A DNA stretch of 64,000 bases from an uncultured Chloroflexia bacterium. GTDB lineage: Bacteria > Chloroflexota > Limnocylindria > Limnocylindrales > CSP1-4. Each line of letters starts with the position of its first letter. The first letter of the stretch is position 1. The notes beneath the pieces are model-generated. The model was not told the origin of the DNA and ran no database searches. It was given only the letters and a program-made list of their open reading frames with translations. The stretch lies in NCBI GenBank assembly GCA_963704935.1, contig CAVPIF010000001.1, positions 1,601,969 to 1,665,968 on the forward strand, written 5' to 3'. Of this stretch, positions 2,773 through 31,986 are shown one piece after another. The translations under genes were made by a program, and so were the position numbers.

Positions 2773-2861
2773 AGAGCGCGGCGCCCTCCGACCGCCGTGG
2801 ACCGGCCAGTCTCGCGCGGCGTCGTACCATCGCCGGACATCCGTCCGCAGCAGGTGCGCCC

Positions 2862-11237: not shown

Positions 11238-13143
11238 GTGGGCAAGAACGTCGCCGTCTTCGTGGACGTGGCGAACATCTTCTATGCGGCCAAGGCCGCC
11301 GGCGTGGACATCGATTACGTCACGCTTCTCAAGGCGGCCTCGGCCGGACGCGACCTCGTGCGCGCCTACGCGTACACGGGCCTCGACCCGGACAACGAGA
11401 ACCAGCGCAACTTCCATGACTTCCTGCGCCGCAGCAACTACAAGGTCGTCAGCAAGGACATCCGCAAGTACGGCGACGGCAAGGTCAAGGCCAACCTGGA
11501 TATCGAGCTGGTCGTCGACATGATGAAGACGGCCCGGAATCTCGATATCGCGATCGTCGTGTCCGGCGACGGCGACTTCGCCCCGGCCATCCGCGCCGTC
11601 CAGGAGATGGGCGTGCGCTGCGAGGTCATCAGCTTCCGCGGCAACACCTCGTCCGATCTGATCGAGGTCGGCGGACCAGTTCACGGACATCACCCAGCTG
11701 GCCCGCGTCGAGAAGGGCTCCAGGTCCGGCCGGCGCGTCGCCGACGCGGACGACCTGTCGATGACCGAGGTGCCGGACAAGCAGACGGAGGGCACCGGAA
11801 CCGGCCGCGGTCGCGGTGTCCGCGGGCGCGGCCGAGCGCGGGCGGAGGCCGAGCCGGTCGCCGCAGCTTCGCGCGGCCGAGGACGCGGACGAAGCGCGCC
11901 GGTATCCGCGGGGTCGGACGGCGGCGGCGATCCCGGGCTGCGCGCCCTTCCCGGAGAGCGCCTGTCCAAGGCGGTCGGCAGCCTGACCGAGGCGGATCTC
12001 GCCGCAGCCGAGGTCTTCACGCTGGACGCGGGTGATGCGCCGTCCGGGGCACCGGCCGCGATCGACACCGACACCGGCGCGCCGCGGTCCGATGAGGAAG
12101 GCGATGGCCAGCGCCGCCGCCGCCGGCGCGGTGGTCGCGGTCGCGGTCGCGGTCGCGGTCGCGAGGACGGGGCGCCGATGGAGTCCGAGGCACCCGTCGC
12201 GGACGCGTTCGAACCCGAGGAGGACGACGACGAGCCCGTGGCGGCTCCGCGCGCCCCACGATCCACCCCGTTCGGCTCGGTGTGGGACTCACAGCTCGGA
12301 ACGTCGGCGTCGCCGGCGGCGGCCGCAAGTCTGCCGCCCGCCAGAGACGACGAGGATTTCGACGAGCCGGAGATCCCCGAGTACCTCATCGCGGAACAGC
12401 GTCGCAGTTCCAGCGGTGGTCGGGGCGGCCAGGGCGCCCGTGGTGGTCGGTCCGCCTACCAGTCCGCGATGGAGCGGGAGCGCTACGGGCGCGGGAGCGG
12501 CGGCGGTATCAACCGCTATCCGGACGTGAGCGGCCGCACCGGCCAGGGCAGCCAGGGCGGCCGCGCCGGCCAGGGCGGCAGGACCGGAGGGGCCGAGGAC
12601 CGATCGTACGGCCGTGGTCGCGATGAGCGACCGCGCGACCGGGTCCCGGCACCGCGCTCGTCCAGCGAGCCGTGGAGCGAGGTTCCGCCGGAGCTGGAGG
12701 CCATGTTGCGGGCGCAGGTCGCCCAGAAGCCCGGTGGTCCCCCGACGGAGACCGTCGAGGCATCGAAGCCGGCGCCGAAGCGCCGGACGACCCGCAAGAC
12801 CGCGGTCGACGCCGAGGCGACCGGAGCGGCCTTGACCGAGTCGACCGAGTCGACCGAATCGACCGCCCTGGAGGCCGAGGGGTCGAAGCCGGCGCCGAAG
12901 CGTCGGACGACCCGCAAGGTCGCCGCCGGGTCGATCGAACCGGCGACCGACGCCGAAGCCCCAGCCTCCGCTCCGGCGGTGAAGCCCCGGGCCACGCGCA
13001 AGCCGGCGGCGTCCAGGGTGAAGGCCGGGACGGCAACGCCGACGACCGGATCGGGTGACGGGGGTGCCGACGCCACCCCGGCGGCCAAGCGCCGGACGAC
13101 CCGGAAGCCCGCGGCCCCCAAGGCCGGGGACGAGACCGCCTGA
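11238..13143 (+). CDS. NYN/LabA-like domain protein with about 480-aa disordered Arg/Gly/Lys-rich repeat tail; apparent 1-nt frameshift at about 11670
   Basis: NYN core VAVFVDVANIFY...IVVSGDGDFAPAIRAVQEMGVRCEVISFRGNTSSDLIEV is in ORF 11238..12035. The continuation DQFTDITQLARVEKGS... is in the frame of ORF 11761..13143. An extra G sits at 11670/11671. AGGAG RBS before the GTG at 11238. Confidence 0.7.
12134..12163 (+). repeat. (ggtcgc)x5 microsatellite encoding (GR)n
   Basis: Direct reading; lies in the NYN-protein tail (RRRRRGGRGRGRGRGRED). Confidence 0.9.
12763..12918 (+). repeat. Two 36-nt direct repeats 120 nt apart (35/36 identical) encoding SKPAPKRRTTRK; weaker third copy at 13087-13107
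   Basis: tcgaagccggcgccgaagcgYcggacgacccgcaag at 12763-12798 and 12883-12918. Confidence 0.9.
12834..12864 (+). repeat. 3 x 9-bp tandem repeat (gaccgagtc) encoding (TES)3
   Basis: Direct reading. Confidence 0.9.
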
Positions 13144-13151
13144 CCCGGACC

Positions 13152-14384
13152 ATGGACGGCGCCCGGACCCGGGGGCATGTGGCCGCGCTCGGCGCGGTCG
13201 CGGCGATGATCCGGGGGCGGGCGCCCCATGCCGTGCTGCTCGTCGGCCCGGCGGGGGTCGGCAAGACCACCCTGGCGCTGGATCTGGCCGCCGGGCTCCT
13301 GTGCACCGCGGAGGACCGGGATCGCCGCCCGTGCGGCGCCTGTCGCGCCTGCCGCCTCGTCGCATCAGGCGGTCACCCGGACCTCCACCGGCTCGGCCCG
13401 GAGGGGCCCGGACGCCAGGTCGTCATCGGGGGCCCGGGCGCGCGCCTGCGCGGCGTCCGGGATCTCGTCGGCGACCTGGCGCTGATGCCCGTCGAAGGAG
13501 GTGCCCGGATCGCCATCGTCGAATCCGCCCAACGGATGAACGACGACGCCCAGGCGGCCCTGCTCAAGACGCTGGAAGAGCCGCCGGCCGGCGTCACGAT
13601 CGTGCTGTGCGCCGACGCGGAGGAACCCCTGCTCCCCACCGTCCGGTCGCGCTGCGCGCGCCTGCGGCTCGGCCCGGTCGGGACGCGGGACATCGAAACA
13701 CTGCTCTCCGACCGTGGTGTCGCCGATCCGCCGACCGCCGCTCGACTGGCCCGTGTCGCGGCCGGACGCCCCGGGGTCGCGCTGGCCTGGGCGGCCGACC
13801 CGGATGCCCTCCGACGGCGGGACGAGCTGAGCCGGATCCTGCTGGACCTGACGTCGGCGCGGCCGTCCCACCGCCTGGAAGCCGTCCGCTCCGCCGCGGT
13901 CGGTGCCGTCGCACTCGCCGCCCTGTCGAGGTCTGGCGACGGGGGCACCCGCACCGCCGTCGGATCGGCCAGCCCCGCAGTCCGCGGTCGCCGGCGCAGA
14001 GCGGACGACGACGCCCCCGGATCGGCAAGCGACCAGCGCCAGGATCCGGACGTCGGTGACGCGTCGGAGGGTGACCTCGAGGTGGGCGCCCCCGGCAAGG
14101 CTTCGGCCGCGGATCGTCGGCGCGCCGCGGAGGTCCTCGTCAGCGTCTGGACCGATGTGGCCCGCGACCTGTTGCTCGGCCGGCATGGGCTCGCCACCTC
14201 ACTCCGGGACCCGCGGCTCCTCGAGGAGACCATGGCCGTCGCGGAGGGGGCGGACGAGGCGGCCCTGCGGGAGTTCCTCGACCGACTCGGTCGCGCCGCC
14301 GTCCGGCTCGCTGGCAACGCCGCGCCGGAGCTGATCCTCGACGATCTCGCGCTGGCCTGGCCGCACCGACGGTCCGCCGCATGA
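13152..14384 (+). CDS. holB: DNA polymerase III delta-prime subunit
   Basis: HAVLLVGPAGVGKTTLA, zinc module CGACRAC, LLKTLEEPP, SRC motif TVRSRC. Confidence 0.9.
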   Translation: MDGARTRGHVAALGAVAAMIRGRAPHAVLLVGPAGVGKTTLALDLAAGLLCTAEDRDRRPCGACRACRLVASGGHPDLHRLGPEGPGRQVVIGGPGARLRGVRDLVGDLALMPVEGGARIAIVESAQRMNDDAQAALLKTLEEPPAGVTIVLCADAEEPLLPTVRSRCARLRLGPVGTRDIETLLSDRGVADPPTAARLARVAAGRPGVALAWAADPDALRRRDELSRILLDLTSARPSHRLEAVRSAAVGAVALAALSRSGDGGTRTAVGSASPAVRGRRRRADDDAPGSASDQRQDPDVGDASEGDLEVGAPGKASAADRRRAAEVLVSVWTDVARDLLLGRHGLATSLRDPRLLEETMAVAEGADEAALREFLDRLGRAAVRLAGNAAPELILDDLALAWPHRRSAA

Positions 14385-14680
14385 GCGCCGCCGCCCGGCT
14401 GGACGCCGTCATCCGCGGCCGGGTGCAGGGGGTCGGGTTTCGGTTCTTCGTCCTGCGTCGTGCCGCAGCTCTCGGGCTGGACGGCTGGGTCGCCAATGCC
14501 CCGGACGGGTCGGTCCGGGTTCGCGCCCAAGGTGCCCGGACCGCCCTCGACGAGCTGGTGGCCGCCCTCCGGGAGGGGCCCTCGGGCGCCGCCGTCGACG
14601 CCGTGGACGTCGCCTGGGGTGAGGTCCTGGGTGACCTTCCCGCGTTCGGCGTCCGAAGCGGCGCCCATCCCGGTGACTGA
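14381..14680 (+). CDS. acyP: Acylphosphatase
   Basis: VIRGRVQGVGFRFFV...GWVANAPDGSVRV. ATGA overlap with holB. Confidence 0.85.
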   Translation: MSAAARLDAVIRGRVQGVGFRFFVLRRAAALGLDGWVANAPDGSVRVRAQGARTALDELVAALREGPSGAAVDAVDVAWGEVLGDLPAFGVRSGAHPGD

Positions 14681-16863: not shown

Positions 16864-17814
16864 TCAGTCGGGGACGATCTCCGTCCCGGCCTCCCCGGCC
16901 AGGGCGGCCTCCATGCCGTCCGGAGAGGTGATGATCGCCCTTCCGCCAGCCTGTTCGAGGTACCAGATGCACGCCTCGATCTTGGGCTGCATGCTGCCCG
17001 GCGCGAAGTGGGTGCCCTCGGCGAGGTAGCGCTTCGCCTCGCCGATCGTGAGGCGGTCCACCCAGCGCTGCTCCGGTCGACCCCAATCGAGTGCGACGCG
17101 CGGCACCGACGTGCTGATCATGAACACGTCGGCGCGCAACTCGATGGCCAGGAGCGCGGAGGCGAAGTCCTTGTCGATCACGGCGGCCACGCCGTGAAGA
17201 TCGCCGTGCTCGTCCGCCACGACCGGGATGCCACCGCCACCGACGGTGATGACGACGAAATCCGCACGCAGCAGCGAACGGACTGCGTCGAGCTCCACGA
17301 TCCGTCGCGGTCTTGGCGACGCCACGACCCGTCGCCAGCCACGGCCGGCATCCTCGCGCACGGCCCAGCCGTCATGGTCCCGGCGGCGGATGGCCGTGGG
17401 CTCGTCCATGAACGATCCGATCGGCTTGGACGCCTGCTCGAACGCTGGATCGTCCGCGGCGACCTCGACCTGCGTGACCAGCGTGACGGCTTGCCGGTCG
17501 ATGCCGAGGCGCCGGAAGTCGTGGCCGAGGTTCTGCTGGAGCTCGTAGCCGATCGCGCCCTGTGAATCGGCGTCGCAGACGTCGAGCGGCACCTCGTGGA
17601 GCTCATGGGCCGCGAGCTCCGACCGGCGGAGGATGAAGCCGACCTGTGGCCCGTTCCCGTGGCCGATCGCGACGTGCCAGCCGTCCTTGATGATGCGGGC
17701 GATGTGCGTGCTCGTCTCGCCCAGCGCCTGGTACTGGTCCGGGACGGACATGTGCTGGGCGTCCTTGATCAGCGAGTTGCCACCGATGGCGACGACGAGG
17801 ACCTGGTTGGACAT
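16864..17814 (-). CDS. arcC: Carbamate kinase
   Basis: LVVAIGGNSL...HVAIGHGNGPQVG...ITVGGGGIPV. AGGAGG RBS. Confidence 0.9.
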   Translation of the reverse strand: MSNQVLVVAIGGNSLIKDAQHMSVPDQYQALGETSTHIARIIKDGWHVAIGHGNGPQVGFILRRSELAAHELHEVPLDVCDADSQGAIGYELQQNLGHDFRRLGIDRQAVTLVTQVEVAADDPAFEQASKPIGSFMDEPTAIRRRDHDGWAVREDAGRGWRRVVASPRPRRIVELDAVRSLLRADFVVITVGGGGIPVVADEHGDLHGVAAVIDKDFASALLAIELRADVFMISTSVPRVALDWGRPEQRWVDRLTIGEAKRYLAEGTHFAPGSMQPKIEACIWYLEQAGGRAIITSPDGMEAALAGEAGTEIVPD

Positions 17815-17868: not shown

Positions 17869-18846
17869 TCAGCGCATCGTCAGGGCCATGACCGCCTTCT
17901 GGGCGTGGAGCCGGTTCTCGGCCTGGTCGTACACGACCGACCGCGGACCGTCGATGACCTCGTCCGCCACTTCGACGCCGCGCTCGGCCGGGAGCGGGTG
18001 CATGTAGATCGCGTCGTCGGCGGCCATCGCCATCCGGCGCCCATCGGTGATCCAGTCCGTGTAGCGCGCGGCGATCGCGGCGCCGTCCGCGTCATCCTTC
18101 GCGTGGAGCAGGGCGCCCCAGCTCTTGGCGTAGACGACGTCGGAGCCGCGGAAACCGGCCTCGAAGTCGTCCAGTCGTTCCAGGCTCCCATGCGACACGC
18201 GCGTGTTCTCCTGTGCCTGGGCGAGGATGTCGGGCATCAGCTCGAACTCCGGTGGGTGGACCAGGCGGACGTCCATGCCGTAGCGGGTCGCGGCCAGCAG
18301 GAGGTCCTGCGGGACGCTGATCGGCTTCTGGTAGGACGCGGCGTACGCCCAGCTGATGGTGATCGTCTTCCCCCGCAGGTCGCCCTTGCGCTCGCGCATC
18401 GTCATCAGGTCCGCCAGGATCTGGTGGGGGTGATAGACGTCGCATTGCATGTTGAGGACCGGGACGCGGCTGGCCGCTGCGACGTCGCGGATGTACTGGT
18501 TGCCGATCCCCCAATCCACGTTGCGGATGGCGATCCCGTCGTTGTAGCGGCCCAGGATCTCGCCGATCTCGGTCGGCGTGTCGCCGTGCGCGATCTGGGT
18601 GGTCCGGCTCTCGATGAACTGGGCGTGACCGCCCAGCTGCGCCATCCCGGCCTCGAATGAGGCCCTGGTCCTCGTGCTGGAGAAGAAGAACAGCATCGCC
18701 AGGACCTTGTCGCGAAGGAGCGGGTGGGCGACGCCCATGGCCCGGTCACGCTTGAGCTGGAAGGCGACGTCGAGGATCGTGTCGATCTCGTCCGTCGTGA
18801 ACTCCTGGAGGCTGATCAGGTCGCGGCCGCGGAGGTCGGTCTGCAT
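17869..18846 (-). CDS. YgeW-like carbamoyltransferase (ATCase/OTCase superfamily, 325 aa)
   Basis: Track ORF 17869..19281 trimmed to the ATG at 18846 (MQTDLRGRDLISL). Motifs STRTR, TQIAHGDT, NMQCDVYHPHQ, ISWAYAASYQKPISVPQD, DVVYAKSWG and YMHPLP. These stretches match my recollection of E. coli YgeW. Confidence 0.8.
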   Translation of the reverse strand: MQTDLRGRDLISLQEFTTDEIDTILDVAFQLKRDRAMGVAHPLLRDKVLAMLFFFSSTRTRASFEAGMAQLGGHAQFIESRTTQIAHGDTPTEIGEILGRYNDGIAIRNVDWGIGNQYIRDVAAASRVPVLNMQCDVYHPHQILADLMTMRERKGDLRGKTITISWAYAASYQKPISVPQDLLLAATRYGMDVRLVHPPEFELMPDILAQAQENTRVSHGSLERLDDFEAGFRGSDVVYAKSWGALLHAKDDADGAAIAARYTDWITDGRRMAMAADDAIYMHPLPAERGVEVADEVIDGPRSVVYDQAENRLHAQKAVMALTMR

Positions 18847-18856
18847 CGCCGCGCCC

Positions 18857-19810
18857 CTACTCCGTCGCGCCCAGCACGAGGCTGAGCAGGGCCATGCGCA
18901 GGACGACGCCGTTGAACGCCTCCACCCAGTAGCGCTGGTGGCGCGTCTCGTCGACGTCGGGCAGGAGTTCGTCCATGCGCGGCAGCGAGTGGAGGATGAT
19001 CGAGCTTGACTTGGCCTTCGCGGCGAGCAGCTCGCGAGTGACCCGATAGGCCTCCGGCGTGGTCGGGAGTTCCCCGCTCCGTTCCTCGCGGCCCTTCGTG
19101 TAGTCGGCCTGGACCACTGGCTCCATGTAGATGACGTCCGCCTGGGCGATCCCCTCCTCGACCGACGCGATCTCGCGGTAGCGCACGTTGACGGCGTCCA
19201 GTTCCGCCTTGAACTCGGGCAGCAGCGACATGTCCGGCGGTCCCACGACGAGGGCCTCGGCATCGAACTGCGACAGCGCATAGAGGATCGAGTGCATCGT
19301 CCGCATCCGCATGTCGCCCACCAGGAGGTAGGTCAGCCCGTCCAGCGTCCCGAGTTCCGTCCGTACGGTGTACAGGTCGGTCAGGACCTGGGTCGGGTGC
19401 TCGCCCCAGCCGTCACCGCAGTTGATGACCGGCACGGACGCCCAGCGCGCGGCCTCGGCCGGTGCGCCCTGCTGGAAATGCCGGATGGCGATGACGTCGC
19501 CGTAGTACTCCAGCATGTGGAAGGTGTCCTTGATCGACTCCTGGTAGAAGTCACCGGCGCGGGTCATCTTCGCGTCGGAGAAGCCGAGGACATGGCCGCC
19601 CAGCCGATGCATCGCGGCCTCCGTGGAGAGGCGGGTCCGGGTACTGGGCTGATAGAAGGCCGTCAGCAGGGTCTTGTTCTTGAGCAGGTCGCCGTTGCGC
19701 CGGTCGCGGGCGTATGGCTTGAGGTCGTCGCAGACCTCGAAGACGCGCTGGAACTCGTCGCGGCTGAAGTCCTTGAGCGACAGGATGTCGCGGCCGAGGA
19801 AGCTTCTCAT
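18857..19810 (-). CDS. Divergent aspartate-carbamoyltransferase (PyrB)-like paralog, substrate unknown (317 aa)
   Basis: STRTR, IRHFQQG, GDGWGEHPTQ, VGDMRMRTMHS, ILHSLPRMDEL and NGVVLRMALLSLVLG are colinear with PyrB. The RVQKER region instead reads EPVVQAD. Confidence 0.8.
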   Translation of the reverse strand: MRSFLGRDILSLKDFSRDEFQRVFEVCDDLKPYARDRRNGDLLKNKTLLTAFYQPSTRTRLSTEAAMHRLGGHVLGFSDAKMTRAGDFYQESIKDTFHMLEYYGDVIAIRHFQQGAPAEAARWASVPVINCGDGWGEHPTQVLTDLYTVRTELGTLDGLTYLLVGDMRMRTMHSILYALSQFDAEALVVGPPDMSLLPEFKAELDAVNVRYREIASVEEGIAQADVIYMEPVVQADYTKGREERSGELPTTPEAYRVTRELLAAKAKSSSIILHSLPRMDELLPDVDETRHQRYWVEAFNGVVLRMALLSLVLGATE

Positions 19811-21224
19811 GGTGCACTCCGATCGGGTAGGGGGTTGCCGTGGCGGACGCCGGTGAACAGGATCGCGACGCGCTCGTTCCCGGCGATCTCGCGCAGCCGC
19901 TGGAGGTGGAGCAGCCCGGCGAGCCCGGCGGTCCCGGTCGCATCGGCGGGGATCCCGGTGGCCTGGTCGGCGAGCAGGTTGGCAGCCAGGAGCTCGGACT
20001 CCTCGACGACGACGGGCCGCCCGCCCGTGCCGAGCATGGCCTCGACCACGGCCAGCCAGTCGTAGGTCTCGTCATCCAGGATCCCGTGGGCGACGCTGCG
20101 CGGCTCCGTCTCCCACGGCCACATGTAGTCCGACCGATGGCGGGCGGCGTGATCGAGCACGGCACGGACCTCGGATCGGGTCACGTCCACGGGGCCGAGG
20201 CTCGGGACCCCGCGACGGTCGAGGTCGGCGACGATCCGATCGTACGCCCGACGGAGCGGCCAGGCACCGGTCGTCTGGACGGTATCCATGCGCGGGACGG
20301 AACGGATGACACCCAGCGTCCGGGCCTCGGCCAGACCCTGCGCGCACGCGGAGGCCAACGCCCCACCACCGACCTGGACGATCAGCCGCGACACCGCCAG
20401 GTCGCCGCGCGCCATGGCCTCGGCCATCTCATACCCCAGCGTCTCGCCGCCCTCGATCGCCAGGCCGTTCACCGGCCCTTGGCAGGTGAACGGGATCGCC
20501 CCGCCCTCGATCGCGACGCGCAGGCGGCGGACCGTCGGGTCTCCGCGCTCGTCCGCGTCGCGCCGGACGACTTCGATCCGGGCGTGCAGGTGTTCGAGGC
20601 GCTCCAGGATCAGCGGGTCGGCGTCGGTCGGCACGAACACGTCCAGGCGGCGGCCGGCGGCATGGGCGACGACGGCCGCGGCCAGCGCCGCGTTCCCACA
20701 GCTGGCGATGGCCAGGGGCCGGCCCTCCAGCGTCGGGTCCAGCGTTTCGGCGACGAGGAGCTCCAGCAGGATGCCCATCAGGTGGCGGGCCTTGTGCGAC
20801 CCGGCGACCCCGCCTGTCTCGTCCTTCACCCAGACGCCATCATCCGCGGTGAACCCGAGCGTGGCGCTCAGCGTGTCCGCGCGCAGGAACGGGGTGATCC
20901 GGAAACCGCGTCCGTCCACTGCCGCCACCGCCCGGTCGAGGCGGTGCACGTGGTCGACATACCGATCGTCCGACCAGCCCGCCGCGCGTGCGACGTGCCA
21001 GGCCCGGAACATCTGGCGATACCGGACGAACGGGTTCGGGTCGTCATCGGCCACGAGCACGATGCGCGAGGGGTCGAGGCGGCGGGTCACCAGGTGGTCG
21101 AGGTCGTCGCCGTCGACGGCTCGCGGGCAGCGGGCGGGAAAGGCGTCGTCGGCCGTCGCCTCCCAGCCACAGCCCGCGCAGTCGACGGCGACCGCGGTGA
21201 CAGGCATGGGCGGCAGCGTGGGGC

Positions 21225-21228
<4 letters not shown>
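19807..21228 (-). CDS. Fold-type II PLP-dependent enzyme, threonine-synthase/TrpB-like (about 473 aa)
   Basis: Lysine motif [15 protein letters not shown] and glycine loop [14 protein letters not shown] at 21228 overlaps the upstream stop (GTGA); alternative ATG at 21207. Confidence 0.7.
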
Positions 21229-22748
<1,520 letters not shown>

Positions 22749-22822
22749 GACCTGCTCTCCCGTCCGGACCGCGACCAGCCACGTGGGCGCCGATCGTGGT
22801 CGATCCGCTCGAAGGTCCGAAC

Positions 22823-22855
22823 GGGCCCCAAAGGACGGGCCCAACAGCAGGGCCC
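22823..22855. promoter_or_regulatory. Three GGGCCC palindromes at 13-14 bp spacing in the divergent promoter region
   Basis: GGGCCC at 22823, 22837 and 22850, inside the 187-bp gap between the two operons. Confidence 0.3.
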
Positions 22856-22935
22856 GCACATGAGAGGCGTTTCCTATGCTGTCGAAGGGGCCGACCCTCG
22901 GGATAGGGCCGGATGGCCGCCATGGAGCAGGCGAT

Positions 22936-25611
22936 ATGGCTCAGTTGACGTTCACGCTGAACGGCCGCGCGGTTTCCGCGGCGGTCGGATCGGGGACCAG
23001 CCTGCTCGAGCTGCTCCGGGATGAGGCGGGCCTGCTGGGCCCGAAGGACGGGTGCGCACCGGAGGGCTCCTGCGGCGCCTGCACGGTCATCGTGGACGAC
23101 CGTGCCGTCGTCACGTGTGCGCAGCCGGCCGAGCGCGTGGCCGGTCGGGCGGTGACGACCCAGGCCGGGCTCTCCTCCGAGGTCCGGGCCCAGTGGGCGG
23201 ATGCATTCGCGCTGACCGGGGCCTCGCAGTGCGGGTTCTGCTCGCCCGGCATCGTGATGAAGGCCGAGGCACTGCTCCGCCGGGACCCCGCCCCCGCTCG
23301 TGATGCCGTGATGCGGGCGCTGGCCGGGAACCTGTGCCGCTGCACCGGATACCACCGGATCGCCGACGCGATCGAGCTGGTGGCGGCCGCAAGACGCGGC
23401 GAGACCCCCATCCCCGCGCCGGAGCGTCGCCCCGATATCGGCTCACGGGCCATCCGCTACGAGTCCCGGGAGCTGGCGCTCGGGACCAAGCCGTTCGTGG
23501 CCGACCTGCGCGTGCCGGACATGCTCCACGGGGCGTTGCGCTTCGCGGACCACCCGCGGGCGGTCGTCCGGCAGATCGACACGGCCCGCGCGGCTGCGCA
23601 TCCGGGTGTCGTCGCCGTCGTCACCGCTGCTGACGTGCCGGGGGAGCGGGTGCAAGGGCTGATCCGCGCGGACTGGCCGGTGTTCGTCGCGGTCGGCGAG
23701 ACGACGCGCTACGTCGGCGACGTGCTGGCCGCAGTCGCCGCCACCACCCGCCGTGCCGCCCGCGAGGCCACCGCCCTCATCGATGTGGACTACGAGGTCC
23801 TCCCGCCGGTCACGGACCCGTTCGAGGCGCTGGCCGCGGACGCTCCGCCGATCCATGAGGGGGGCAACCTGTTGTCGCGGTCGGAGATCCGCCACGGCGA
23901 CGTGGACGTCGCGCTCTCCGGTGCCGCGCACGTGGTGACCGACACATTCCGAACCGGGCGGATCGAGCACGCGTTCCTGGAGCCCGAGGCGTGCCTCGCG
24001 GTCCCGGCCTCGGGCGAGGCAACGGCGATCCCGGACGTGACCGCCGCCGCGCCCGAGCCGAGCCTGCACCTCTTCTCGCCGGGCCAGGGGGCCTGGGACG
24101 ATCGCCGGCAGGTCGCCTCACTCCTGGGTCTGGCGGCATCGGACGTGCGGGTCACGCAGGTTTCGACCGGCGGCGGGTTCGGCGGCAAGGAGGACCTCAG
24201 CGTCCAGGGCCAGACCGCACTCCTGGCCTGGCGGACCGGCCGTCCGGTCCTGCTCGCCCTCTCCCGCAAGGACAGCCTGCGTCTCCATCCCAAGCGCCAC
24301 CCGTTCTGGATGGACTACACGGTCGGCTGCGACGCGGACGGTCGCCTGGCTGCCGTCCGGGCGAGGATCGTCGGGGACAACGGCGCCTACGCGAGCGTCG
24401 GGATGAAGGTCCTTGAGCGAGCCGCCGCGCACGCCTGCGGCCCGTACCGGGTCGGCGCGGTGGATGTCGAGGCACGGGCTGTCTACACCAACAACCCGCC
24501 GTCGGGCGCGATGCGCGGGTTCGGCGTCAACCAGACCGCCTTCGCCGTCGAGGGGATGCTGGACCGACTCGCAGAGATGGTCGGGATCGACGGCTGGGAG
24601 ATGCGCTGGCGCAATGCCCTGGAGACCGGTGATCGCTTCGCCACCGGGCAACGGCTGGGCCCGGGCGTCGGGCTCAAGGCGACCCTGCTCGCGGTTCGTG
24701 ATGCCTATCGGGCGGCCCCGCGAGCGGGGATCGCGTGTGGCGTGAAGAATTCCGGCATCGGCAATGGCCTGACCGAGCACGGCCGCGCCATCCTCCGGCC
24801 CGAGGCCGACGGCAGCATCACGCTCTACCACTCGTGGACCGAGATGGGCCAGGGTTGCCACACGGTCTTCGCCCAGCTCGCCGCGTCGGAACTTGGCGTC
24901 CCGCTGGACACCATCCGCGTCGTCGTCGATACCGAACGCGAGCTCGATACCGGACAGACCACGGCCTCGCGGGCCACGATGCTCGGCGGACGGGCGGTGC
25001 TGGAGGCCGCCGCAGCCCTTCGAGTGGAGCTGGCTGGCCGGCCACCGCGGGACCTGGCGGGTCGCGAGTTCCCCGGTGAGATCACCATCGACTGGACGAC
25101 ACCGCTGGACACGGATGCCGCCGAGCCGATCACCCACTTCGCCTTCGGCTGGGCGACCCAGGTCGTGATCCTCGATGACGAGGGCCGGATCGCCAGGGTC
25201 GTGGCGGCCCACGATGTCGGCCGCGTCCTCAATCGGACCCTGGTCGAAGGTCAGGTGGAGGGCGGCGTCCACATGGGTCTCGGCCAGGCGCTCAGCGAGG
25301 AGTTCATCGTTCGCGACGGGGTGCCGGTCACGGACACGCTCAAGTCACTGGGGATCATCCCGGCCGCCGGGATGCCCCCGGTCGAGACGATCCTCGTGGA
25401 GGAGCCGCAGCCCGAAGGTCCGCTCGGGGCGAAGGGGATCGGGGAAGCGTGCCTGGTTCCGACGGCGGCGGCCGTCGCGGGAGCGCTCTACCGGTTCGAC
25501 GGCATCCGGCGGACTCGCCTGCCGATGCGTGATTCGGCGGCCGCCCGCGCGGCGGTCCCCAGGTTGGCCCATCTCGCCGAAGCGCCGGCCCTGGCTCGGC
25601 GGGCGCCATGA
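22936..25611 (+). CDS. XdhD/Mop-type molybdenum hydroxylase with fused N-terminal 2x[2Fe-2S] domains, no FAD domain (891 aa)
   Basis: ATG at 22936 with GGAG 8 nt upstream. Motifs [20 protein letters not shown] and CRCTGYH. Moco domain with the conserved GAKGIGE near the C-terminus. Confidence 0.85.
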
Positions 25612-26987
25612 CCACCGTGCTGTCGGGTGGGACGGTCGTCGCCGGGCTGCACCCGGCCGAGATCGTCGTCGGTGACATCGTCATCGAGGGCGACCGGGTC
25701 GCGGCCGTCGGCTCCGGTCCGTTCGGGCCGTCCCGACCGCACGCCGGATCGATGGACGTCGCCGTCGTCGACGTCTCGGGTTGCCTCGTGATCCCGGGCA
25801 ACGTCTGCGCGCACACCCACGCCTACTCCGCCCTGGCCCGCGGGATGCCCTATCGACTCGCCCCACCGCGGGACTTCGTGGAGATCCTCCGCCGCGTCTG
25901 GTGGCGCCTGGACCGGGCACTCGACGAAGCCACGATCCGGGCGTCTGCCCGGGTGGCGGCCGCCGAGGCGCTGCTCGCCGGGACCACCACGCTCGTCGAC
26001 CATCATGCGTCGCCGCGTGCCATCGATGGCTCGCTCGACACCGTCGCGCAGGCGTTCTCGGAGCTCGGCGTGCGCTCGATCCTGGCCTACGAGACGAGCG
26101 ATCGGGACGGGCCGCTGGCGGCGGCCGGCGGACTGGCAGAGAACCGGCGGTTCCTGGCCTGGGTCGCGGCCGAGCATCCGCGGCTGGTCCGGGGCATGGT
26201 CGGAGCGCATGCCTCGTTCACGCTGTCCGACGCCACGCTTGACGGCTGCGTGGACCTTGCGCGGGCGAGCGGCTGCGGCCTCCACATCCACGTTGCCGAG
26301 GACGCCGCCGACGAGCGGGATTCGGCGGCGAGCCACGGGGTGCGCGTCCTGGATCGACTGGAGCGGGCCGGCGCCCTGGACCCGGCCCCGTTGCTCGCCC
26401 ACGGCGTCCACCTGGACCAGGCGGAGGCGGCCCTGTTCCGGGCGTCGGGCGCGACCCTGGCGCATAACCCGCGCTCCAACATGAACAACGCTGTCGGGCG
26501 GGCGCCCCTCGGCCTGCTGGGCCCGCGCGTCGCCCTGGGCACGGACGGGATCGGGGCGGACATGTTCGAAGAGAGCCGGGTGGGCCACCTGCGCCTGGTC
26601 GAGGAGGGTGGCAGCCACACGGACGGCGCCGCCTGGCCCCTCGCGCGGCTGACCGCCGGAGCGCGTCTCGTCGGCGACGCCTTCGACGAGCCCACGTTCG
26701 GGCGGATCGTCGCCGGCGCGCCGGCGGACCTCGTCGTCCTCGACCAGCCGCTGCCGACGCCGATCACGCCGGACACCCTTGCTGGTCACTGGGTCTTCGG
26801 ATTGTCCGCCCGGGCGGTCCGCGATGTGATCGTGGCCGGCCGGGTCGTGGTCCGCGACCGGCGCCTGACGAGCGTGGACCAGGACGTCCTGGCCGCCGAA
26901 GCCCGGGTCGAGGCGACCCGACTGTGGGAGCGCATGGACGCGATCGGCGAACACCCGTTCGCGTCCGGGGAGGTGATGGTGGGATGA
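25608..26987 (+). CDS. ssnA: SsnA-like amidohydrolase (chlorohydrolase/cyclic amidase superfamily)
   Basis: VIPGNVCAHTHAYSALARGM...TTTLVDHHASP...HIHVAEDAAD...LAHGVHL...ALGTDG. ATGA overlaps on both sides. Confidence 0.75.
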   Translation: MTTVLSGGTVVAGLHPAEIVVGDIVIEGDRVAAVGSGPFGPSRPHAGSMDVAVVDVSGCLVIPGNVCAHTHAYSALARGMPYRLAPPRDFVEILRRVWWRLDRALDEATIRASARVAAAEALLAGTTTLVDHHASPRAIDGSLDTVAQAFSELGVRSILAYETSDRDGPLAAAGGLAENRRFLAWVAAEHPRLVRGMVGAHASFTLSDATLDGCVDLARASGCGLHIHVAEDAADERDSAASHGVRVLDRLERAGALDPAPLLAHGVHLDQAEAALFRASGATLAHNPRSNMNNAVGRAPLGLLGPRVALGTDGIGADMFEESRVGHLRLVEEGGSHTDGAAWPLARLTAGARLVGDAFDEPTFGRIVAGAPADLVVLDQPLPTPITPDTLAGHWVFGLSARAVRDVIVAGRVVVRDRRLTSVDQDVLAAEARVEATRLWERMDAIGEHPFASGEVMVG

Positions 26988-28129
26988 CCTCGTCGACCGG
27001 ACCCGTGGCAGGCACGACGGCCGCCGCCGACCTCGCGCCCACCCCCGTCGACCTCTCCGTCGAGGTCTGCGGCATCCGCTTCCCCAACCCGGTCTGGACC
27101 GCAGCCGGTCCGCCGGTCCGCGACGGCGCCGCACTGCTGGCGTGTGCTGCCGGAGGCGCAGGTGGGCTCGTCACCAAGACGATCTCCCGGACCGCCGCCG
27201 AGCCCACGACGCCGAACATGGCCGAGATCTCGCACGGCTTCCTGAACGCCGAGCTGTGGTCGGAACTCCCGCCGGAGCGCTGGATCGAGCGCGAGTACGC
27301 GATCACCCGCGAGGCCGGATTGCCGGTCATCGTGAGCATGGGCTACAGCGCCGAGGACATCGCTGACCTCGCGCCCCGGGTGCGACCGTTCGCCGACGCC
27401 CTGGAGCTGTCCACGCACTACATCGGTGAGGACGCCGAGCCGATGGTCGCCGCGATCCGTGCCGCCAAGGCCGCGGTGGACGTCCCGGTGTTCGTGAAGC
27501 TGAGCCCCCTTGGACGCGAGATGCGGAGGGCCGCTGAGCAGGCCCAGGCGGCCGGCGCGGACGCGATCGTGGCGATCAACTCGTTCGGGCCGTGTCTCGC
27601 CATCGACATCGAGGCCGCGATGCCGCATATCGGCGGCGACGACGGCTACGGGTGGTTGTCCGGCCCGGCCCTCAAGCCGATCGCGATCCGCTGCGTCCAC
27701 GACGTCGCATCCGTCGTCGACATCCCGGTGATCGGCTGTGGTGGGATCTCGCGCGGGACGGACGTCATCGAGCACCTGATGGCCGGGGCGGTCGCGACCC
27801 AGGTCTGCACGGCCGCGATCCTGCGCGGCCCGGGCGTCCTCGGCAAGATCGCGACGGAGACGGCGACCTGGCTCGGCAAGCACGGCTATGCGAACCCCGC
27901 GGCGGTCAGCGGCCTCGCCCTGCGCCGGACGTCGACCGACCCGATCCACGCACCGATCCTGGACCTGGACCTGTGCAACGGCTGTGGCCTGTGCGAGCTG
28001 TCGTGCGACCACGACGCGGTCAACGTGGTGGACGGCAAGGCGATCCTCGACGAGGAGATGTGCACCCGCTGCGGTCTGTGCATCTCCCGCTGCCGGCCGG
28101 GCGCCCTGCTCTGGGAATCGCCGGCCTGA
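26984..28129 (+). CDS. Dihydroorotate/dihydropyrimidine dehydrogenase (PreA)-like flavoprotein with C-terminal 2x[4Fe-4S] ferredoxin domain
   Basis: ATG at 26984 overlaps the ssnA stop. Motifs GIRFPNPVWTAAGP, VFVKLSP, IGCGGISRG, CNGCGLCELSC and CTRCGLCISRC. Confidence 0.8.
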   Translation: MTSSTGPVAGTTAAADLAPTPVDLSVEVCGIRFPNPVWTAAGPPVRDGAALLACAAGGAGGLVTKTISRTAAEPTTPNMAEISHGFLNAELWSELPPERWIEREYAITREAGLPVIVSMGYSAEDIADLAPRVRPFADALELSTHYIGEDAEPMVAAIRAAKAAVDVPVFVKLSPLGREMRRAAEQAQAAGADAIVAINSFGPCLAIDIEAAMPHIGGDDGYGWLSGPALKPIAIRCVHDVASVVDIPVIGCGGISRGTDVIEHLMAGAVATQVCTAAILRGPGVLGKIATETATWLGKHGYANPAAVSGLALRRTSTDPIHAPILDLDLCNGCGLCELSCDHDAVNVVDGKAILDEEMCTRCGLCISRCRPGALLWESPA

Positions 28130-28157
28130 CCCGCCTCCGGTACGATGCCGGACGGCC

Positions 28158-28703
28158 ATGACCGATCCTTCCCGGCCGCTGCCCCGCGACCTCCTGTTGA
28201 CCGGCGAACGCGTCCGCCTGCGCGCGGTCCGGCCGGACGACCACGACCGACTTCGGGAGATCCTGCGCGAGCCCTCGGTGGCCCGCTGGTGGGGTCCGCC
28301 GCGCCCCGGGGTCGATGTCGTCGACGACTGGCTCGACGCCGACGAGGACACGCTCGTGCTGGCGATCGAGGTCGATGGCCAGGTCGTCGGCAGCCTCCAG
28401 TTCGCCGAGGAGGCCGACCCTGATTACCGGCACGCCGGCATCGACCTGTTCCTCGCGACGGCGTCGCAGGGCCGCGGCCTCGGCACGGACGCGATCCGGA
28501 CCGTCGCCCGCCACCTGTTCGACGTCCGCGGCCATCATCGGCTGACGATCGACCCGTCCGCGGAAAACGAGCGGGCGATCGCCGCATACCGGCGCGTCGG
28601 CTTCCGGCCCGTCGGAGTCATGCGCTCGTACGAGCGCGGCTCCGACGGCAGCTTCCACGACGGCCTGCTCATGGACCTGCTCCGCGACGAGTTCACCGGG
28701 TGA
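28158..28703 (+). CDS. GNAT family N-acetyltransferase (RimJ/AAC(6')-like, 181 aa)
   Basis: VRLRAVRPDD...WW...IDLFLATASQGRGLGTDAIRTVARHLF...AAYRRVGF. Confidence 0.75.
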   Translation: MTDPSRPLPRDLLLTGERVRLRAVRPDDHDRLREILREPSVARWWGPPRPGVDVVDDWLDADEDTLVLAIEVDGQVVGSLQFAEEADPDYRHAGIDLFLATASQGRGLGTDAIRTVARHLFDVRGHHRLTIDPSAENERAIAAYRRVGFRPVGVMRSYERGSDGSFHDGLLMDLLRDEFTG

Positions 28704-29887
28704 GCAGCCGGGGATCGGCGGACGTCGCCATCGTCGGCGGCGGAGTCATCGGGAGCGCGATCGCGTATTTCCTGCGCTCGGACCCGGGCTTCGACGGGCG
28801 GGTCGTCGTGATCGAACGGGACCCGAGCTATCGGCGCGCCTCGTCGGCGCTGTCGGCGAGCTCTATCCGGCAGCAGTTCTCCACGCCGGAGAACATCCGG
28901 ATGTCGCAGTTCGGGTTCGACTTCCTCCGCCGCACGAGCGAGCACCTCTCCGTGGACGGCGACGTGCCGGACATCGGGTTGACGGAGCGCGGGTACCTCT
29001 TCCTGGCGACCCCGCGGCACGAGGCCACCCTGCGGGACGTCCACACGATCCAGCGTGCGGAGGGTGCCGAGGTGGTCCTCCTGTCGCCCGCCGAGCTCGC
29101 CGACCGCTACCCCTGGATGTCCATCGACGGGATCGCCCTGGGCTCGCTCGGGCTGCGACGCGAGGGCTGGTTCGATGGCGATGCGCTCACCCGGGCCTTC
29201 GTCCGGGCGGCGAAGGCGCGCGGCGTCGAGTACCTGCCGGCGGAAGTCGTCGGGATCGAGGCGGATGGGTCGCGGATCAGCGGCGTGCGGCTGTCGGACG
29301 GCGCCACGCTCCGCTGCGGAACGCTCGTCAACGCCGCCGGCCCGTGGGCTCGCTCGGTCGCCGCGATGGCCGGTGTGCCGCTCCCGGTCGAGGCGCGCCG
29401 GCGTACCGTGTTCGTCTTCGGCGGTCGCGAGCCGATCCCCGATTGCCCGCTCGTCATCGACGCCTCAGGGGCGTGGTTTCGGCCCGAGGGCGGTTCGTTC
29501 ATCGGCGCGATCTCCCCGCCGGAGGCGGACGACCTCTCCGACCTCCCGCTGGATCCGGATCGCGGCCTCTGGGAGCGTGCCCTCTGGCCGGCCCTCGCCG
29601 CGCGCGTCCCCGCGTTCGACGCCCTGCGGACGACCAGCGCGTGGGCCGGCTACTACGAGGTCAACACCCACGACCACAACGCCATCCTGGGGCGGCACCC
29701 GGAGATCGCGAACCTGCTGTTCGCGAACGGGTTCTCCGGTCACGGGATCCAGCAGGCGCCCGCGGTCGGGCGCGCCATCGCGGAACTGATCCTCCGGGGC
29801 CGGTACGTCAGCCTGGACCTGTCGGTGTTCGGCTACGAGCGGATCGCCGCCGGGCGCCGGGTGGAGGAGCGCAACGTCATCGGCTGA
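28700..29887 (+). CDS. FAD-dependent oxidoreductase, DAO family (sarcosine/D-amino-acid oxidase-like)
   Basis: Dinucleotide fold VAIVGGGVIGSAIAYFL and FANGFSGHGIQQAPAVG. Confidence 0.8.
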   Translation: MSSRGSADVAIVGGGVIGSAIAYFLRSDPGFDGRVVVIERDPSYRRASSALSASSIRQQFSTPENIRMSQFGFDFLRRTSEHLSVDGDVPDIGLTERGYLFLATPRHEATLRDVHTIQRAEGAEVVLLSPAELADRYPWMSIDGIALGSLGLRREGWFDGDALTRAFVRAAKARGVEYLPAEVVGIEADGSRISGVRLSDGATLRCGTLVNAAGPWARSVAAMAGVPLPVEARRRTVFVFGGREPIPDCPLVIDASGAWFRPEGGSFIGAISPPEADDLSDLPLDPDRGLWERALWPALAARVPAFDALRTTSAWAGYYEVNTHDHNAILGRHPEIANLLFANGFSGHGIQQAPAVGRAIAELILRGRYVSLDLSVFGYERIAAGRRVEERNVIG

Positions 29888-29922
29888 CCGTTGACGCCGG
29901 GGTCGCGGACGACTTCACCCGC

Positions 29923-31932
29923 TCAGATCGCGCTGGCCACCCGCAGCCCCTCGAGGATGGCCTCCTCTACGGTCCGTGGTGCCAGGCAGTCCCCGATGCC
30001 GTGGACCTCGCCGTCGAAGGTGCCGAGCGCGTCGAGCGCGGTGAGCAGCCCGTCTACCGGGTCGTGGCCCTGGGCGAGTACGAGGCCGGCAACGTCCTCC
30101 ACGATCGCGGCCTCCCCGGTGAGGACGTGCTGGAAGAAGACGGCGGAGCCGTCGTACCCGAAGAGTCGAACCAGGGGGAGTACCTGGACCCCGGCCCGGG
30201 TCACCGACGCGATCATCGCGTCGCGGACGTACTGCTGGATCCGCTGCCCCGGCATGTAGCCGTCCACGCCCAGCGTCACTCGCCGGCCGCGCTCGGCGAG
30301 GAGCTCCGCGAGGCCAAGGCCCACCCAGTCGCAGCGCCAATCGGCAACGACGAGCCGGCCTTCCGGGAGCTCGGCGCCGCGCAGGACCTGCCAGGCGTCC
30401 AGGACGATCGGCGATCCACTCAGCTCCAGCGGCGGTCGGCGCGGCAGCGCGCCCGTCGCCACGACGACCACGTCCGGTCGCTCGCGCCGGATCAGGTCCA
30501 CGTCCACGGTGGTCCCGGTGATCACCCGAACGCCGGCCCGCTCCGCTTCGCCGGTCAGGTTCGTGACCACGCCCCCGAACTCGGCCCGCCCGGGCAGGCG
30601 TTCCGCGAGCAGCACCTGGCCGCCGACCCGTCGAGCGGCTTCGTAGAGGGTCACCCGATGGCCGCGCTCGGCGGCGACGGTCGCCGCCTTGAGACCGCCG
30701 GGACCGCCACCCACGACCAGGACGTCGCGGACACGCGTTGCGCGGACCGGCGGGCCGAACTCCAGTTCGCGGCCACTCTCCGGGTACTGGATGCAGGAGA
30801 TCGGATAGCCGGCGTGGAAATGACCGATGCACGCCTGGTTGCAGCCGATGCAGGCGCGGATCTCGTCCGCCCGGTCGTCGGCTGCCTTCATCGGCAGCAG
30901 CGGGTCGCAGATGAGTGCCCGCGTCATCGCACAGGCGTCCGCCTGCGCCAGCTCCAGGATCCGCTCCGCCTCCTGCGGCTGGTTGATCCGGCCCGCGACG
31001 ATGACCGGGACGCGCACGACGGCCCTGGCCCGTGCGGCGAGTGGCGCCGTGTAGGCGTTCGGGAGGGTCATCGGCGGCACGATGTGGTCGGAGCCTGCGA
31101 GCGTCGCCGATGTGCCGGCCACGACGCTGACGTAGTCGATCAGCTCGTCTGCATCAAGGGTCGCGAGCGCCGGCAGGACGTCGTCCGGAGTGAGGCCCTC
31201 CGGGGTGATCTCGTCGATCGAGATGCGCAGACCAACGACCGGCTCGCGGCCGATCTCGGCCCGGATCGCGGCGATCGTCTCGCGCAGGAAGCGCAGCCGG
31301 TTCTCCGCGCTGCCGCCGTAGCGGTCCGTGCGCAGGTTCACCCGCGGGTTGAGGAACTGGGCGGGAAGGTAGCCGTGGCTGGCAACGACCTCGACCCCGT
31401 CCAGGCCCGCGTCGCGCAACCGCCGCGCCGCCGAGGCGTAGCCGGCCCGGATCTCCTCGATGAGCGGGATCGGCATGGCGCGCGGCATGACCCCGAACCG
31501 TTCGTTCGGGACGGCTGACGGGGCGAGGGCGACCGGCAGCGTCCCGTCCATCGACTCCATCAGTTCGCGGCCGTCGTGGAAGACCTGGCCGACGATCGCG
31601 CTGCCATGCCCGTGGACCGCTTCGGCCAGCCGGCGGTACCCGGGGATGCAGGCGTCGTCGGTCGCCATCAGGACGTGCGAGGTATACCGCGCGCTCTCGT
31701 GGACGCCCGCCACCTGGACGACGATGAGCCCGACGCCGCCCGCGGCGCGGGCCGCCTGATACGCGATCAGCCGCTCCGTCACGAAGCCGTCGACGGCCAT
31801 GACCGTGTCGTGCCCCGACGACACGATCCGATTGCGCAGCGTGACGCTCCCGATCCGCAGCGGCGAGAACAGCCGCGGGAACGGCCGCGCGGGCGGCGCG
31901 CCCGGGGAGGGCGCGGGTAGCGGATCGGACAT
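29923..31932 (-). CDS. NADH:flavin oxidoreductase of the 2,4-dienoyl-CoA reductase (OYE TIM barrel + 4Fe-4S + FAD/NAD(P)) type (669 aa)
   Basis: Track ORF 29923..32232 trimmed to the ATG at 31932 (MSDPLPAP). Motifs LRNRIVSSGH, CIGCNQACIGH and VVGGGPGGLKAA. Confidence 0.85.
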   Translation of the reverse strand: MSDPLPAPSPGAPPARPFPRLFSPLRIGSVTLRNRIVSSGHDTVMAVDGFVTERLIAYQAARAAGGVGLIVVQVAGVHESARYTSHVLMATDDACIPGYRRLAEAVHGHGSAIVGQVFHDGRELMESMDGTLPVALAPSAVPNERFGVMPRAMPIPLIEEIRAGYASAARRLRDAGLDGVEVVASHGYLPAQFLNPRVNLRTDRYGGSAENRLRFLRETIAAIRAEIGREPVVGLRISIDEITPEGLTPDDVLPALATLDADELIDYVSVVAGTSATLAGSDHIVPPMTLPNAYTAPLAARARAVVRVPVIVAGRINQPQEAERILELAQADACAMTRALICDPLLPMKAADDRADEIRACIGCNQACIGHFHAGYPISCIQYPESGRELEFGPPVRATRVRDVLVVGGGPGGLKAATVAAERGHRVTLYEAARRVGGQVLLAERLPGRAEFGGVVTNLTGEAERAGVRVITGTTVDVDLIRRERPDVVVVATGALPRRPPLELSGSPIVLDAWQVLRGAELPEGRLVVADWRCDWVGLGLAELLAERGRRVTLGVDGYMPGQRIQQYVRDAMIASVTRAGVQVLPLVRLFGYDGSAVFFQHVLTGEAAIVEDVAGLVLAQGHDPVDGLLTALDALGTFDGEVHGIGDCLAPRTVEEAILEGLRVASAI

Positions 31933-31986
31933 CGACGGACGGACTCCATCTCGGTGTGAGCCGGGCCGCCTCACTCTAGCGTGACG
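31870..31986. repeat. 117-bp direct repeat, copy A (5' end and upstream region of the OYE/FadH-like gene)
   Basis: 100% identical to 35924-36040. Degenerate similarity continues to about 32009 / 36063. Confidence 0.9.

Follow-up and report, generated by a model that had tools for sequence, protein, structure and literature searches.

A pseudo-aspartate carbamoyltransferase as a candidate replacement for YgeY in urate clusters of soil Chloroflexota and Actinomycetota

A 64,000-nucleotide stretch of contig CAVPIF010000001.1 from an uncultured Chloroflexia bacterium (positions 1,601,969 to 1,665,968 of the forward strand; hereafter the window, in whose coordinates genes are given below) carries two adjacent carbamoyltransferase genes, termed here CTB and CTA, directly upstream of a carbamate kinase gene. 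Judging from their sequences and their conserved surroundings, CTA and CTB are probably intact, co-transcribed catabolic enzymes, of which CTB replaces the hydrolase YgeY of the reductive urate pathway, such that both ureido groups of the pathway intermediate would be phosphorolysed and delivered to carbamate kinase.

The reductive (2,8-dioxopurine) pathway of urate degradation and its diureido intermediate were worked out only in 2025, in gut bacteria (PMC12507026; bioRxiv 10.1101/2025.04.24.650524; PMC12990295). In the published scheme, 2,3-diureidopropionate carries two ureido groups: one is phosphorolysed by the carbamoyltransferase YgeW, yielding ATP via the carbamate kinase YqeA, and the other is hydrolysed by YgeY, with YgeX turning 2,3-diaminopropionate into pyruvate.

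Results

Two carbamoyltransferase genes ahead of a carbamate kinase

CTB (18857..19810, minus strand, 317 aa) and CTA (17869..18846, minus strand, 325 aa) belong to a five-gene operon on the minus strand that runs from PALP544 through PALP499, CTB and CTA to carbamate kinase. Both proteins contain domains PF02729 and PF00185 (E 1e-22 to 1e-45). With 32% identity in an alignment of 243 residues (E 1e-24), they are divergent paralogues. The two genes are separated by only 10 nt (18847..18856, minus strand, read from the sequence), and a GGAG in this junction overlaps the CTB stop codon; the CTA start, MQTDLRG, is internal to a longer open reading frame (ORF). After a gap of 54 nt, in which an AGGAGG lies 7 nt ahead of the ATG, the carbamate kinase gene (16864..17814, minus strand, 316 aa, PF00696) ends the operon, and its product scores 371 bits against NF009007 (cut-off 266) and is 50% identical to E. 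coli YqeA. An earlier sequence-only reading of this DNA had pointed to two divergent carbamoyltransferase genes 10 nt apart upstream of a carbamate kinase, and the ORFs and the spacer were found as it described; the arrangement is real and goes well beyond chance.

At its other end, CTB adjoins PALP499 (19807..21306, minus strand; PF00291, E 9e-35), whose stop codon overlaps the CTB start in the sequence ATGA and whose true start is probably near 21207. PALP544 (21225..22859, minus strand; PF00291) is the first gene of the operon, and its start is uncertain. The same gene order is present in a 97%-identical relative (L083) on a metagenome-assembled contig of 3.1 Mb.

CTB resembles aspartate carbamoyltransferases but has replacements at the second-substrate site

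At 39% identity, CTB aligns to PyrB, the aspartate carbamoyltransferase (ATCase) of E. coli, and its best solved relative is the ATCase of P. abyssi (1ml4). It retains the carbamoyl-phosphate site (S52-T55, R105, H134, Q137 and the HxLP motif) together with R167, and has the motifs STRTR, HPTQ and HSLPR; across 40 aligned sequences this site and Arg167 are invariant, with HxLP reading HSLP and not HP[LG]P. Elsewhere in the active site the alignment to PyrB reveals replacements. The 80s loop, TRAGDFYQES, has GDFYQES in place of the GKKGE of PyrB, making it two residues longer and depriving it of Lys84, and no lysine is present to complete the Ser80/Lys84 pair that marks the 80s loop of the adjacent chain in ATCases. 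The PyrB stretch TRVQKER has become EPVVQAD, with the loss of Arg229, Gln231 and Arg234, and the RxQxxER motif, a feature that distinguishes ATCases (PMC4581275), reads PVVQADY. Similarly, FYQPSTRT has Gln for the Glu50 of FxExSTRT. Taken residue by residue, K84, R229, Q231 and R234 are exchanged for F/Y, P, V and D, and E230, D236 and D87 are gained. These active-site replacements are invariant among 28 family members and are therefore selected changes, not decay.

Because it has neither Lys84 nor RxQxxER, CTB is, on sequence criteria, not an aspartate carbamoyltransferase. The sequence-only reading had recognised the retained STRTR, HPTQ and H-x-LPR motifs and the replaced Lys84 and Arg229 positions, and had argued that aspartate is not the second substrate; the PyrB alignment upholds both points, the latter through the missing RxQxxER and Lys84, the Gln in place of Glu50, and HSLP. 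With Lys84, Arg229, Gln231 and Arg234 replaced and Glu230, Asp236 and Asp87 acquired, the anion pocket of CTB appears to be reversed, and its alpha-carboxylate binding appears to be kept. A site of this kind would fit an amino acid that is carbamoylated at N-alpha and whose side chain is cationic or neutral.

It is scarcely credible that CTB is nonetheless an ordinary ATCase or an inactive relic of one. The name aspartate carbamoyltransferase is attached to the family in JGI and NCBI records, and CTB does exceed the cut-off of one curated profile (TIGR00670, 256 bits against 237), yet it stays below that of another (NF002032, 220 against 263), the residues that replace RxQxxER, Lys84 and Glu50 are family-invariant, and the gene is part of an operon for purine catabolism, in which carbamate kinase comes after it. 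With 78-86% identity between phyla, CTB cannot be a relic.

The closest protein already noted in the literature is A1SH59 of Nocardioides sp. JS614, to which CTB is 73% identical (sequence as aligned by Barba et al. 2013, PMC4016543). In a neighbour-joining tree that we computed from CTB, genuine ATCases and the 50%-cluster representatives closest to CTB, a clade of CTB, A1SH59 and two family representatives has 100% bootstrap support. Deep nodes are weak, CTB falling outside a clade of 12 ATCases in only 142 of 200 replicates, and the placement of CTB is therefore based on its motifs and on the published tree of Barba et al. In its similarity to A1SH59, its HSLP motif and its adjoining ygeW homologue and xdh genes, CTB has the features of pseudo-ATCase subgroup 2 of Barba et al.

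Among 1.8 billion cluster representatives searched, the CTB family comes down to two full-length sequences, each at least 78% identical to CTB; no other relative exceeds 48%, which leaves the range between 48% and 78% empty. Many of these nearest relatives (37-48%) are other uncharacterised pseudo-ATCases (e.g., P0251, P0253, P0254, P0256 and P0259) with a [ST]R[AS]GD.Y.E 80s loop and without RxQxxER, constituting a large unstudied group annotated as ATCase; genuine ATCases are not closer to CTB than these neighbours. The only assayed pseudo-ATCase, the ureidoglycine carbamoyltransferase (UGTCase) Rxyl_2847, is 34% identical to CTB, and this low identity, together with the lack of any uricase or allantoinase in the cluster, rules out CTB as a UGTCase. 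AlphaFold2 models of CTB and CTA built from close-homologue alignments were poor, with pLDDT values of 59 and 63, too low for mapping the active sites or a YgeW-type trefoil knot in CTA.

CTA is a short YgeW-type enzyme

CTA is 35% identical to E. coli YgeW and considerably shorter (325 versus 396 aa). In the alignment, three deletions coincide with YgeW-specific insertions, and the extra N- and C-terminal helices and the 240s-loop helices of YgeW are missing; compared with ornithine carbamoyltransferase (OTCase), the 120s loop has about 4-5 additional residues, but it has 11 fewer than that of YgeW. All four CTA stretches that the sequence-only reading had quoted as YgeW-specific exist and align to the E. 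coli protein: QIAHGDT with QIAHGET, NMQCDVYHPHQ with NLQCDIDHPTQ, WAYAASYQKPISVPQ with WAYSPSYGKPLSVPQ, and DVVYAKSWG with DIVYPKSWA. For YgeW-type carbamoyltransferases (YTCs), a set of residues has been proposed as the second-substrate site, and of these Q98, Q160, S200, K203, K270 and E344 are conserved in CTA, where TQIAHG, MQCD, SYQK, KSW, PAE and GVEV align to the second-substrate sites, with D334 changed from Asp to Glu (in PAE) and D124 ambiguously aligned. These residues are invariant in 26 family members, and the Pro-rich loop, SYQKPISVPQ, is present.

CTA falls below every NCBIfam cut-off, including those for OTCase (NF001986, 257 bits against 306; TIGR00658, 249 against 281), N-acetylornithine carbamoyltransferase (AOTCase; 245 against 288) and YgeW itself (NF005538, 185 against 453; TIGR03316, 169 against 500). 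A Foldseek search with the CTA AlphaFold2 model (pLDDT 63) gave equal scores for OTCase and AOTCase, and public records label the protein an ornithine or N-acetylornithine carbamoyltransferase. Neither assignment holds, as DxxxSMG and HCLP are missing (VVYAKSWG and HPLP in their place) and the cut-offs are not reached. Nor is either protein a 2,3-diaminopropionate carbamoyltransferase (DPTCase): CTA has HPLP and CTB has HSLP where HDLP would be expected, and both lack the (T/S)RWQTTG 240s motif.

CTA is 71% identical to A1SH60 of Nocardioides, which belongs to the short YTC subclade of the tree of Barba et al. and is there parted by a long, 100%-supported branch from the subclade of Cloacamonas and parabasalid sequences (PMC4016543). 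By these comparisons, CTA is a member of the short YTC subclade and not a canonical YgeW. The earlier suggestion of a YgeW-like protein thus applies to the second-substrate loops and does not extend to YgeW proper, given the profile score of 185 against 453 bits, the 35% identity and the missing helices.

The cluster has the gene content of the reductive urate pathway

Three plus-strand genes diverge from the operon. An XdhAC-type molybdenum enzyme with a fused 2Fe-2S domain (22876..25611, likely start at 22936; TIGR03311, 947 bits against 830) is followed by an SsnA-like aminohydrolase (25608..26987), which aligns end to end with E. coli SsnA at 40% identity and scores slightly below the cut-off of NF005540 (428 against 444 bits), and by a UacX-type reductase with a DHODH-like domain and 4Fe-4S motifs (26924..28129; PF01180 and Fer4), whose likely start at 26984 overlaps the SsnA stop codon and which is 48-53% identical to UacX of Firmicutes urate clusters. 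XdhAC, a UacX-type reductase, SsnA, a carbamoyltransferase and carbamate kinase, the genes by which the pathway is recognised, are hence all present, and by this gene content the cluster encodes the reductive urate pathway. A search of all 64 kb of the window at E 1e-3 gave no homologue of HyuA, YgeY or YgeX.

The reductase slot beside SsnA is occupied in related loci by three unrelated enzymes: UacX, as in the window, at Limnocylindria loci, a luciferase-like protein of the F420 type at 24 loci and YgfK at seven, with examples at 12536-13609 of locus L020 and 3-3119 of locus L045.

CTB and its neighbours are conserved in many soil bacteria

CTB occurs in at least 579 species-level soil genomes at 78-86% identity, its carriers including Chloroflexota, Gaiellales, Thermoleophilia, Acidimicrobiales and Streptosporangiaceae; among Chloroflexota and Actinomycetota from soil, the gene arrangement is widely distributed. 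No other protein of the cluster is as conserved as CTB, which keeps this identity across Chloroflexota and several actinobacterial orders in which SsnA is at 42-63%. Li et al. (2025) had noticed Chloroflexota and Actinomycetota variants of the pathway, with neighbours scored at the Pfam level only, which cannot tell apart two PF00185 or two PF00291 genes.

Gene context was counted in the 45 loci in which CTB is flanked by about 10 kb of sequence to either side. XdhAC was present in 41, SsnA in 34, carbamate kinase in 32 and HyuA in nine, and purine-uptake (Bmp) transporters and adenine deaminase were also frequent neighbours in related loci. YgeY was found in a single locus (1/45) and YgeX in none (0/45). 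A second carbamoyltransferase, of the short YTC type, accompanies CTB in 42 of the 45 loci: in 28 it is adjacent and 73-85% identical to CTA, and in 14 it lies 5-9 kb downstream and is 45-52% identical to CTA. The remaining three have no second carbamoyltransferase within 10 kb. Among all loci, L013, L033, L059, L079 and L082 have carbamate kinase directly after CTB with no CTA between, although only in L059 and L079 is the downstream sequence long enough to show that CTA is absent, the contigs of L013, L033 and L082 ending 0.6-2.5 kb from CTB.

This pattern bears on the suggestion of the sequence-only reading that the two proteins form a hetero-oligomer, taken here as mixed CTA/CTB trimers with composite active sites. 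The 10-nt spacing, the co-occurrence in 42 of 45 loci and the fact that carbamoyltransferase active sites borrow the 80s loop of the neighbouring subunit would all suit such an assembly. However, in the 14 loci with a distant partner, only about 50% identical to CTA, CTB is still about 80% identical to the CTB of the window, and CTB also occurs with no partner within 10 kb (in three loci) or with carbamate kinase directly behind it (in L059). In addition, CTA and CTB have only 32% identity and a different C-terminal fold class, all characterised members of the family are homotrimers (PMC4581275), and the short YTC enzymes of Firmicutes work without CTB. Mixed trimers are thus very improbable, and that part of the earlier suggestion is not sustained.

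YgeY occupies the place of CTB in Firmicutes clusters

Seven Firmicutes genomes, each with a short YTC enzyme 46-49% identical to CTA, were examined for comparison. In all seven clusters the direct neighbour of the short YTC gene encodes a true YgeY, with 53-73% identity to the E. coli protein, and none of the seven has a second gene for a carbamoyltransferase. In other respects they follow the canonical plan and contain XdhAC, UacX or YgfK, SsnA, often HyuA and sometimes carbamate kinase. Because YgeY is present in seven of seven Firmicutes clusters versus one of 45 CTB-type loci, the position adjoining the short YTC gene is filled by either the hydrolase YgeY or CTB.

Five loci, of which the acidimicrobial L034 and L065 were examined, have a UacY-like protein of the D-aminoacylase family (PF07969; minus strand, 8147-9865 in L034 and 8149-9948 in L065) beside CTB, CTA and carbamate kinase, which brings the candidate ureido-cleaving enzymes to three in a single cluster.

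Two divergent pyridoxal phosphate enzymes precede CTB

PALP544 and PALP499 are highly divergent fold-type-II pyridoxal phosphate (PLP) enzymes with no close characterised relative, their best PDB matches being a cysteine synthase (E 5e-18) and a threonine synthase (E 6e-12), respectively, and they nearly always stand ahead of CTB. In 72 loci with at least 3.5 kb of upstream sequence, PALP544 was found in 65 and PALP499 in 59. Neither is an orthologue of YgeX (E 0.009 for PALP499 and 6e-4 for PALP544). Homologues of PALP544 (33-46% identical) are present in four Firmicutes clusters without YgeX and missing from one with YgeX, and the two proteins may serve as a non-orthologous diaminopropionate ammonia-lyase.

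The tight linkage to these genes also raises the question of whether CTB acts elsewhere. CTA alone might then perform the YgeW step, with CTB using a carbamoyl or ureido compound outside the diureidopropionate branch, for example an N-carbamoyl amino acid made or consumed by PALP544 and PALP499, or a ring-opened product of a soil variant of the pathway. The overlap of the PALP499 stop with the CTB start would agree with this, as would the fact that PALP544, PALP499 and CTB together form the most constant part of the cluster, with CTA up to 5-9 kb away; moreover, with HyuA missing from the window the intermediates may differ from those of E. coli, and some loci combine CTB with YgeY-like or UacY-like genes. 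We nevertheless consider a separate substrate unlikely: YgeY adjoins the short YTC gene in every Firmicutes cluster and is nearly missing where CTB is present, PALP544 homologues occur in YgeY-type clusters that lack CTB, which indicates that the PLP enzymes do not need it, and the two ureido groups of the pathway are matched exactly by two carbamoyltransferases.

Other features of the window

The window has a G+C content of about 70% and stems from a Chloroflexota bacterium of Limnocylindria type. Its closest related genome records are soil metagenome-assembled genomes labelled Chloroflexia or Limnocylindrales, and the sequencing runs that match it are soil and sediment metagenomes only (5-6% of words), with no RNA run among them. 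A small acylphosphatase gene (14381-14680, plus strand) lies about 2 kb from carbamate kinase and is syntenic in L083. Further along, at 11238-13143 (plus strand), a gene whose homologue in L083 has an NYN domain precedes a long ORF of low complexity that is rich in Arg, Gly and Pro, and many spurious antisense ORFs overlap this high-GC stretch. On the other side, UacX is flanked by genes for a GNAT protein, a DAO-type FAD oxidoreductase and an OYE-plus-FAD oxidoreductase (27888-32232). The DAO, OYE-type and GNAT genes were not found in 80 related genome-scan loci, the near-identical L083 having a GNAT gene at this position, and they are probably outside the conserved system.

Discussion

While gene structure, family placement, active-site substitutions and conserved context are direct observations, we infer from them the substrates, regiochemistry and ATP yield of CTA and CTB. 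In the proposed route, XdhAC would convert urate to 2,8-dioxopurine, UacX would carry out the reduction, and ring opening by SsnA and an assumed hydantoinase, which the window does not encode, would lead to 2,3-diureidopropionate. CTA would perform the YgeW step, in which one ureido group is cleaved with phosphate to give carbamoyl phosphate. CTB would stand in for YgeY and cleave the other ureido group, likewise with phosphate, its most likely substrate being the N-alpha-carbamoyl group of 3-amino-2-ureidopropionate and its product 2,3-diaminopropionate. Both carbamoyl phosphates would then reach the downstream carbamate kinase, for up to two ATP per urate versus one, and PALP544 and PALP499 would most likely replace YgeX in converting the C3 amino acid to pyruvate and ammonia.

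This route would accommodate the two catabolic carbamoyltransferases feeding one carbamate kinase that the sequence-only reading had described, and of the two explanations it had offered, that of two distinct ureido intermediates fits the diureidopropionate context and is the best reading. We assign CTB to the N-alpha position because Arg167 and Arg105, which hold the alpha-carboxylate, are kept; the assignment agrees with the order of cleavage given by Liu et al. and would be consistent with a descent of the YTC site from N-acylornithine enzymes. In its full form the proposal is more tentative: CTB may be an uncharacterised ATCase-derived N-alpha-carbamoyl-2,3-diaminopropionate/diureidopropionate phosphorolase that, together with a short YgeW, brings about fully phosphorolytic cleavage of the urate diureide with doubled substrate-level ATP, with PALP544 and PALP499 possibly acting as a non-orthologous diaminopropionate ammonia-lyase.

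Alternatively, CTA and CTB could be redundant, cleaving the same ureido position and differing in the stereoisomer (D or L) or in the precursor (derived from hydantoin or from dihydrouracil) that they accept. SsnA gives two products in vitro, where racemic substrates were used, published work leaves the stereochemistry of the pathway unsettled, and ATCase-type enzymes use L-amino acids whereas the gut pathway is reported to be D-configured. Redundancy of this kind is improbable, since the second-substrate sites of the two enzymes are built on unrelated loops (knotted-type YTC versus ATCase-type) and since cleavage of one position by both would leave the second ureido group without an enzyme, YgeY being absent.

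Several observations weigh against the replacement of YgeY by CTB as we propose it. The comparison of CTB-type loci with Firmicutes clusters is not corrected for phylogeny, and the replacement is not strict: YgeY-like or UacY-like genes stand beside CTB in some loci, a YgeY-like gene occurring alongside both CTB and CTA in L054 and L076. A hydantoinase gene is missing from the 64-kb window and present in only nine of the 45 related loci, so that the formation of diureidopropionate is assumed. The intermediates of the gut pathway are D-configured, and ATCases act on L-aspartate. CTB is translationally coupled to the PLP enzymes and not to CTA, and its substrate could follow the PLP chemistry. 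Finally, two of the 2025 papers give different answers as to the ureido group that is cleaved by YgeW, and the N-alpha assignment of CTB is therefore purely an argument from homology.

The gene pairing had already been reported, uncharacterised, in Nocardioides sp. JS614, where Barba et al. (2013) described pseudo-ATCase subgroup 2 beside a ygeW homologue, xdhABC and hyuA (PMC4016543). A1SH59 and A1SH60 are orthologues of CTB and CTA, with which they have in common their adjacency, the HSLP and EPVVQADYT motifs and the link to xanthine dehydrogenase. They were reported from one genome with no function proposed, and their surroundings differ, with xdhABC and hyuA nearby in contrast to the XdhAC, SsnA and UacX of the window, which has no hyuA. 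The gene pair has thus been known since 2013, and what is new is its proposed role as a replacement for YgeY in the pathway described in 2025.

Compared with the YgeW-YgeY-YgeX-HyuA-YqeA module of E. coli (Li et al., 2025; Liu et al., 2025), the upstream enzymes of the window match (XdhD/XdhAC, SsnA and yanthine reductase), and in both a YgeW-type carbamoyltransferase feeds carbamate kinase. The window differs in having an ATCase-derived carbamoyltransferase in place of the M20 hydrolase YgeY and two unrelated PLP enzymes in place of YgeX. PyrB and CTB have the fold, the carbamoyl-phosphate site and Arg167 in common, but CTB has HSLP instead of HPLP and belongs to a catabolic operon. Like CTB, the ureidoglycine enzyme of Rubrobacter xylanophilus (Rxyl_2847, pseudo-ATCase subgroup 1) is derived from ATCase, takes part in purine degradation and is encoded beside carbamate kinase; unlike CTB, it has other 80s-loop and 240s motifs and serves an oxidative route with uricase and allantoinase, whereas that of CTB is reductive. 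DPTCase of viomycin and zwittermicin biosynthesis links carbamoyl phosphate and L-2,3-diaminopropionate, the reverse of which is one candidate reaction here, but it is an anabolic enzyme of the OTCase branch and is marked by HDLP and (T/S)RWQTTG.

Which ureido group is removed first and how much energy the pathway yields are both still open (PMC12990295). If each ureido group indeed has its own carbamoyltransferase, CTA and CTB would represent two naturally separated specificities that could settle the regiochemistry. The ornithine and N-acetylornithine carbamoyltransferase labels on CTA would be corrected, and a highly conserved protein labelled aspartate carbamoyltransferase in hundreds of genomes would gain a function. 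In that case, soil bacteria would conserve both carbamoyl groups of the urate diureide as ATP.

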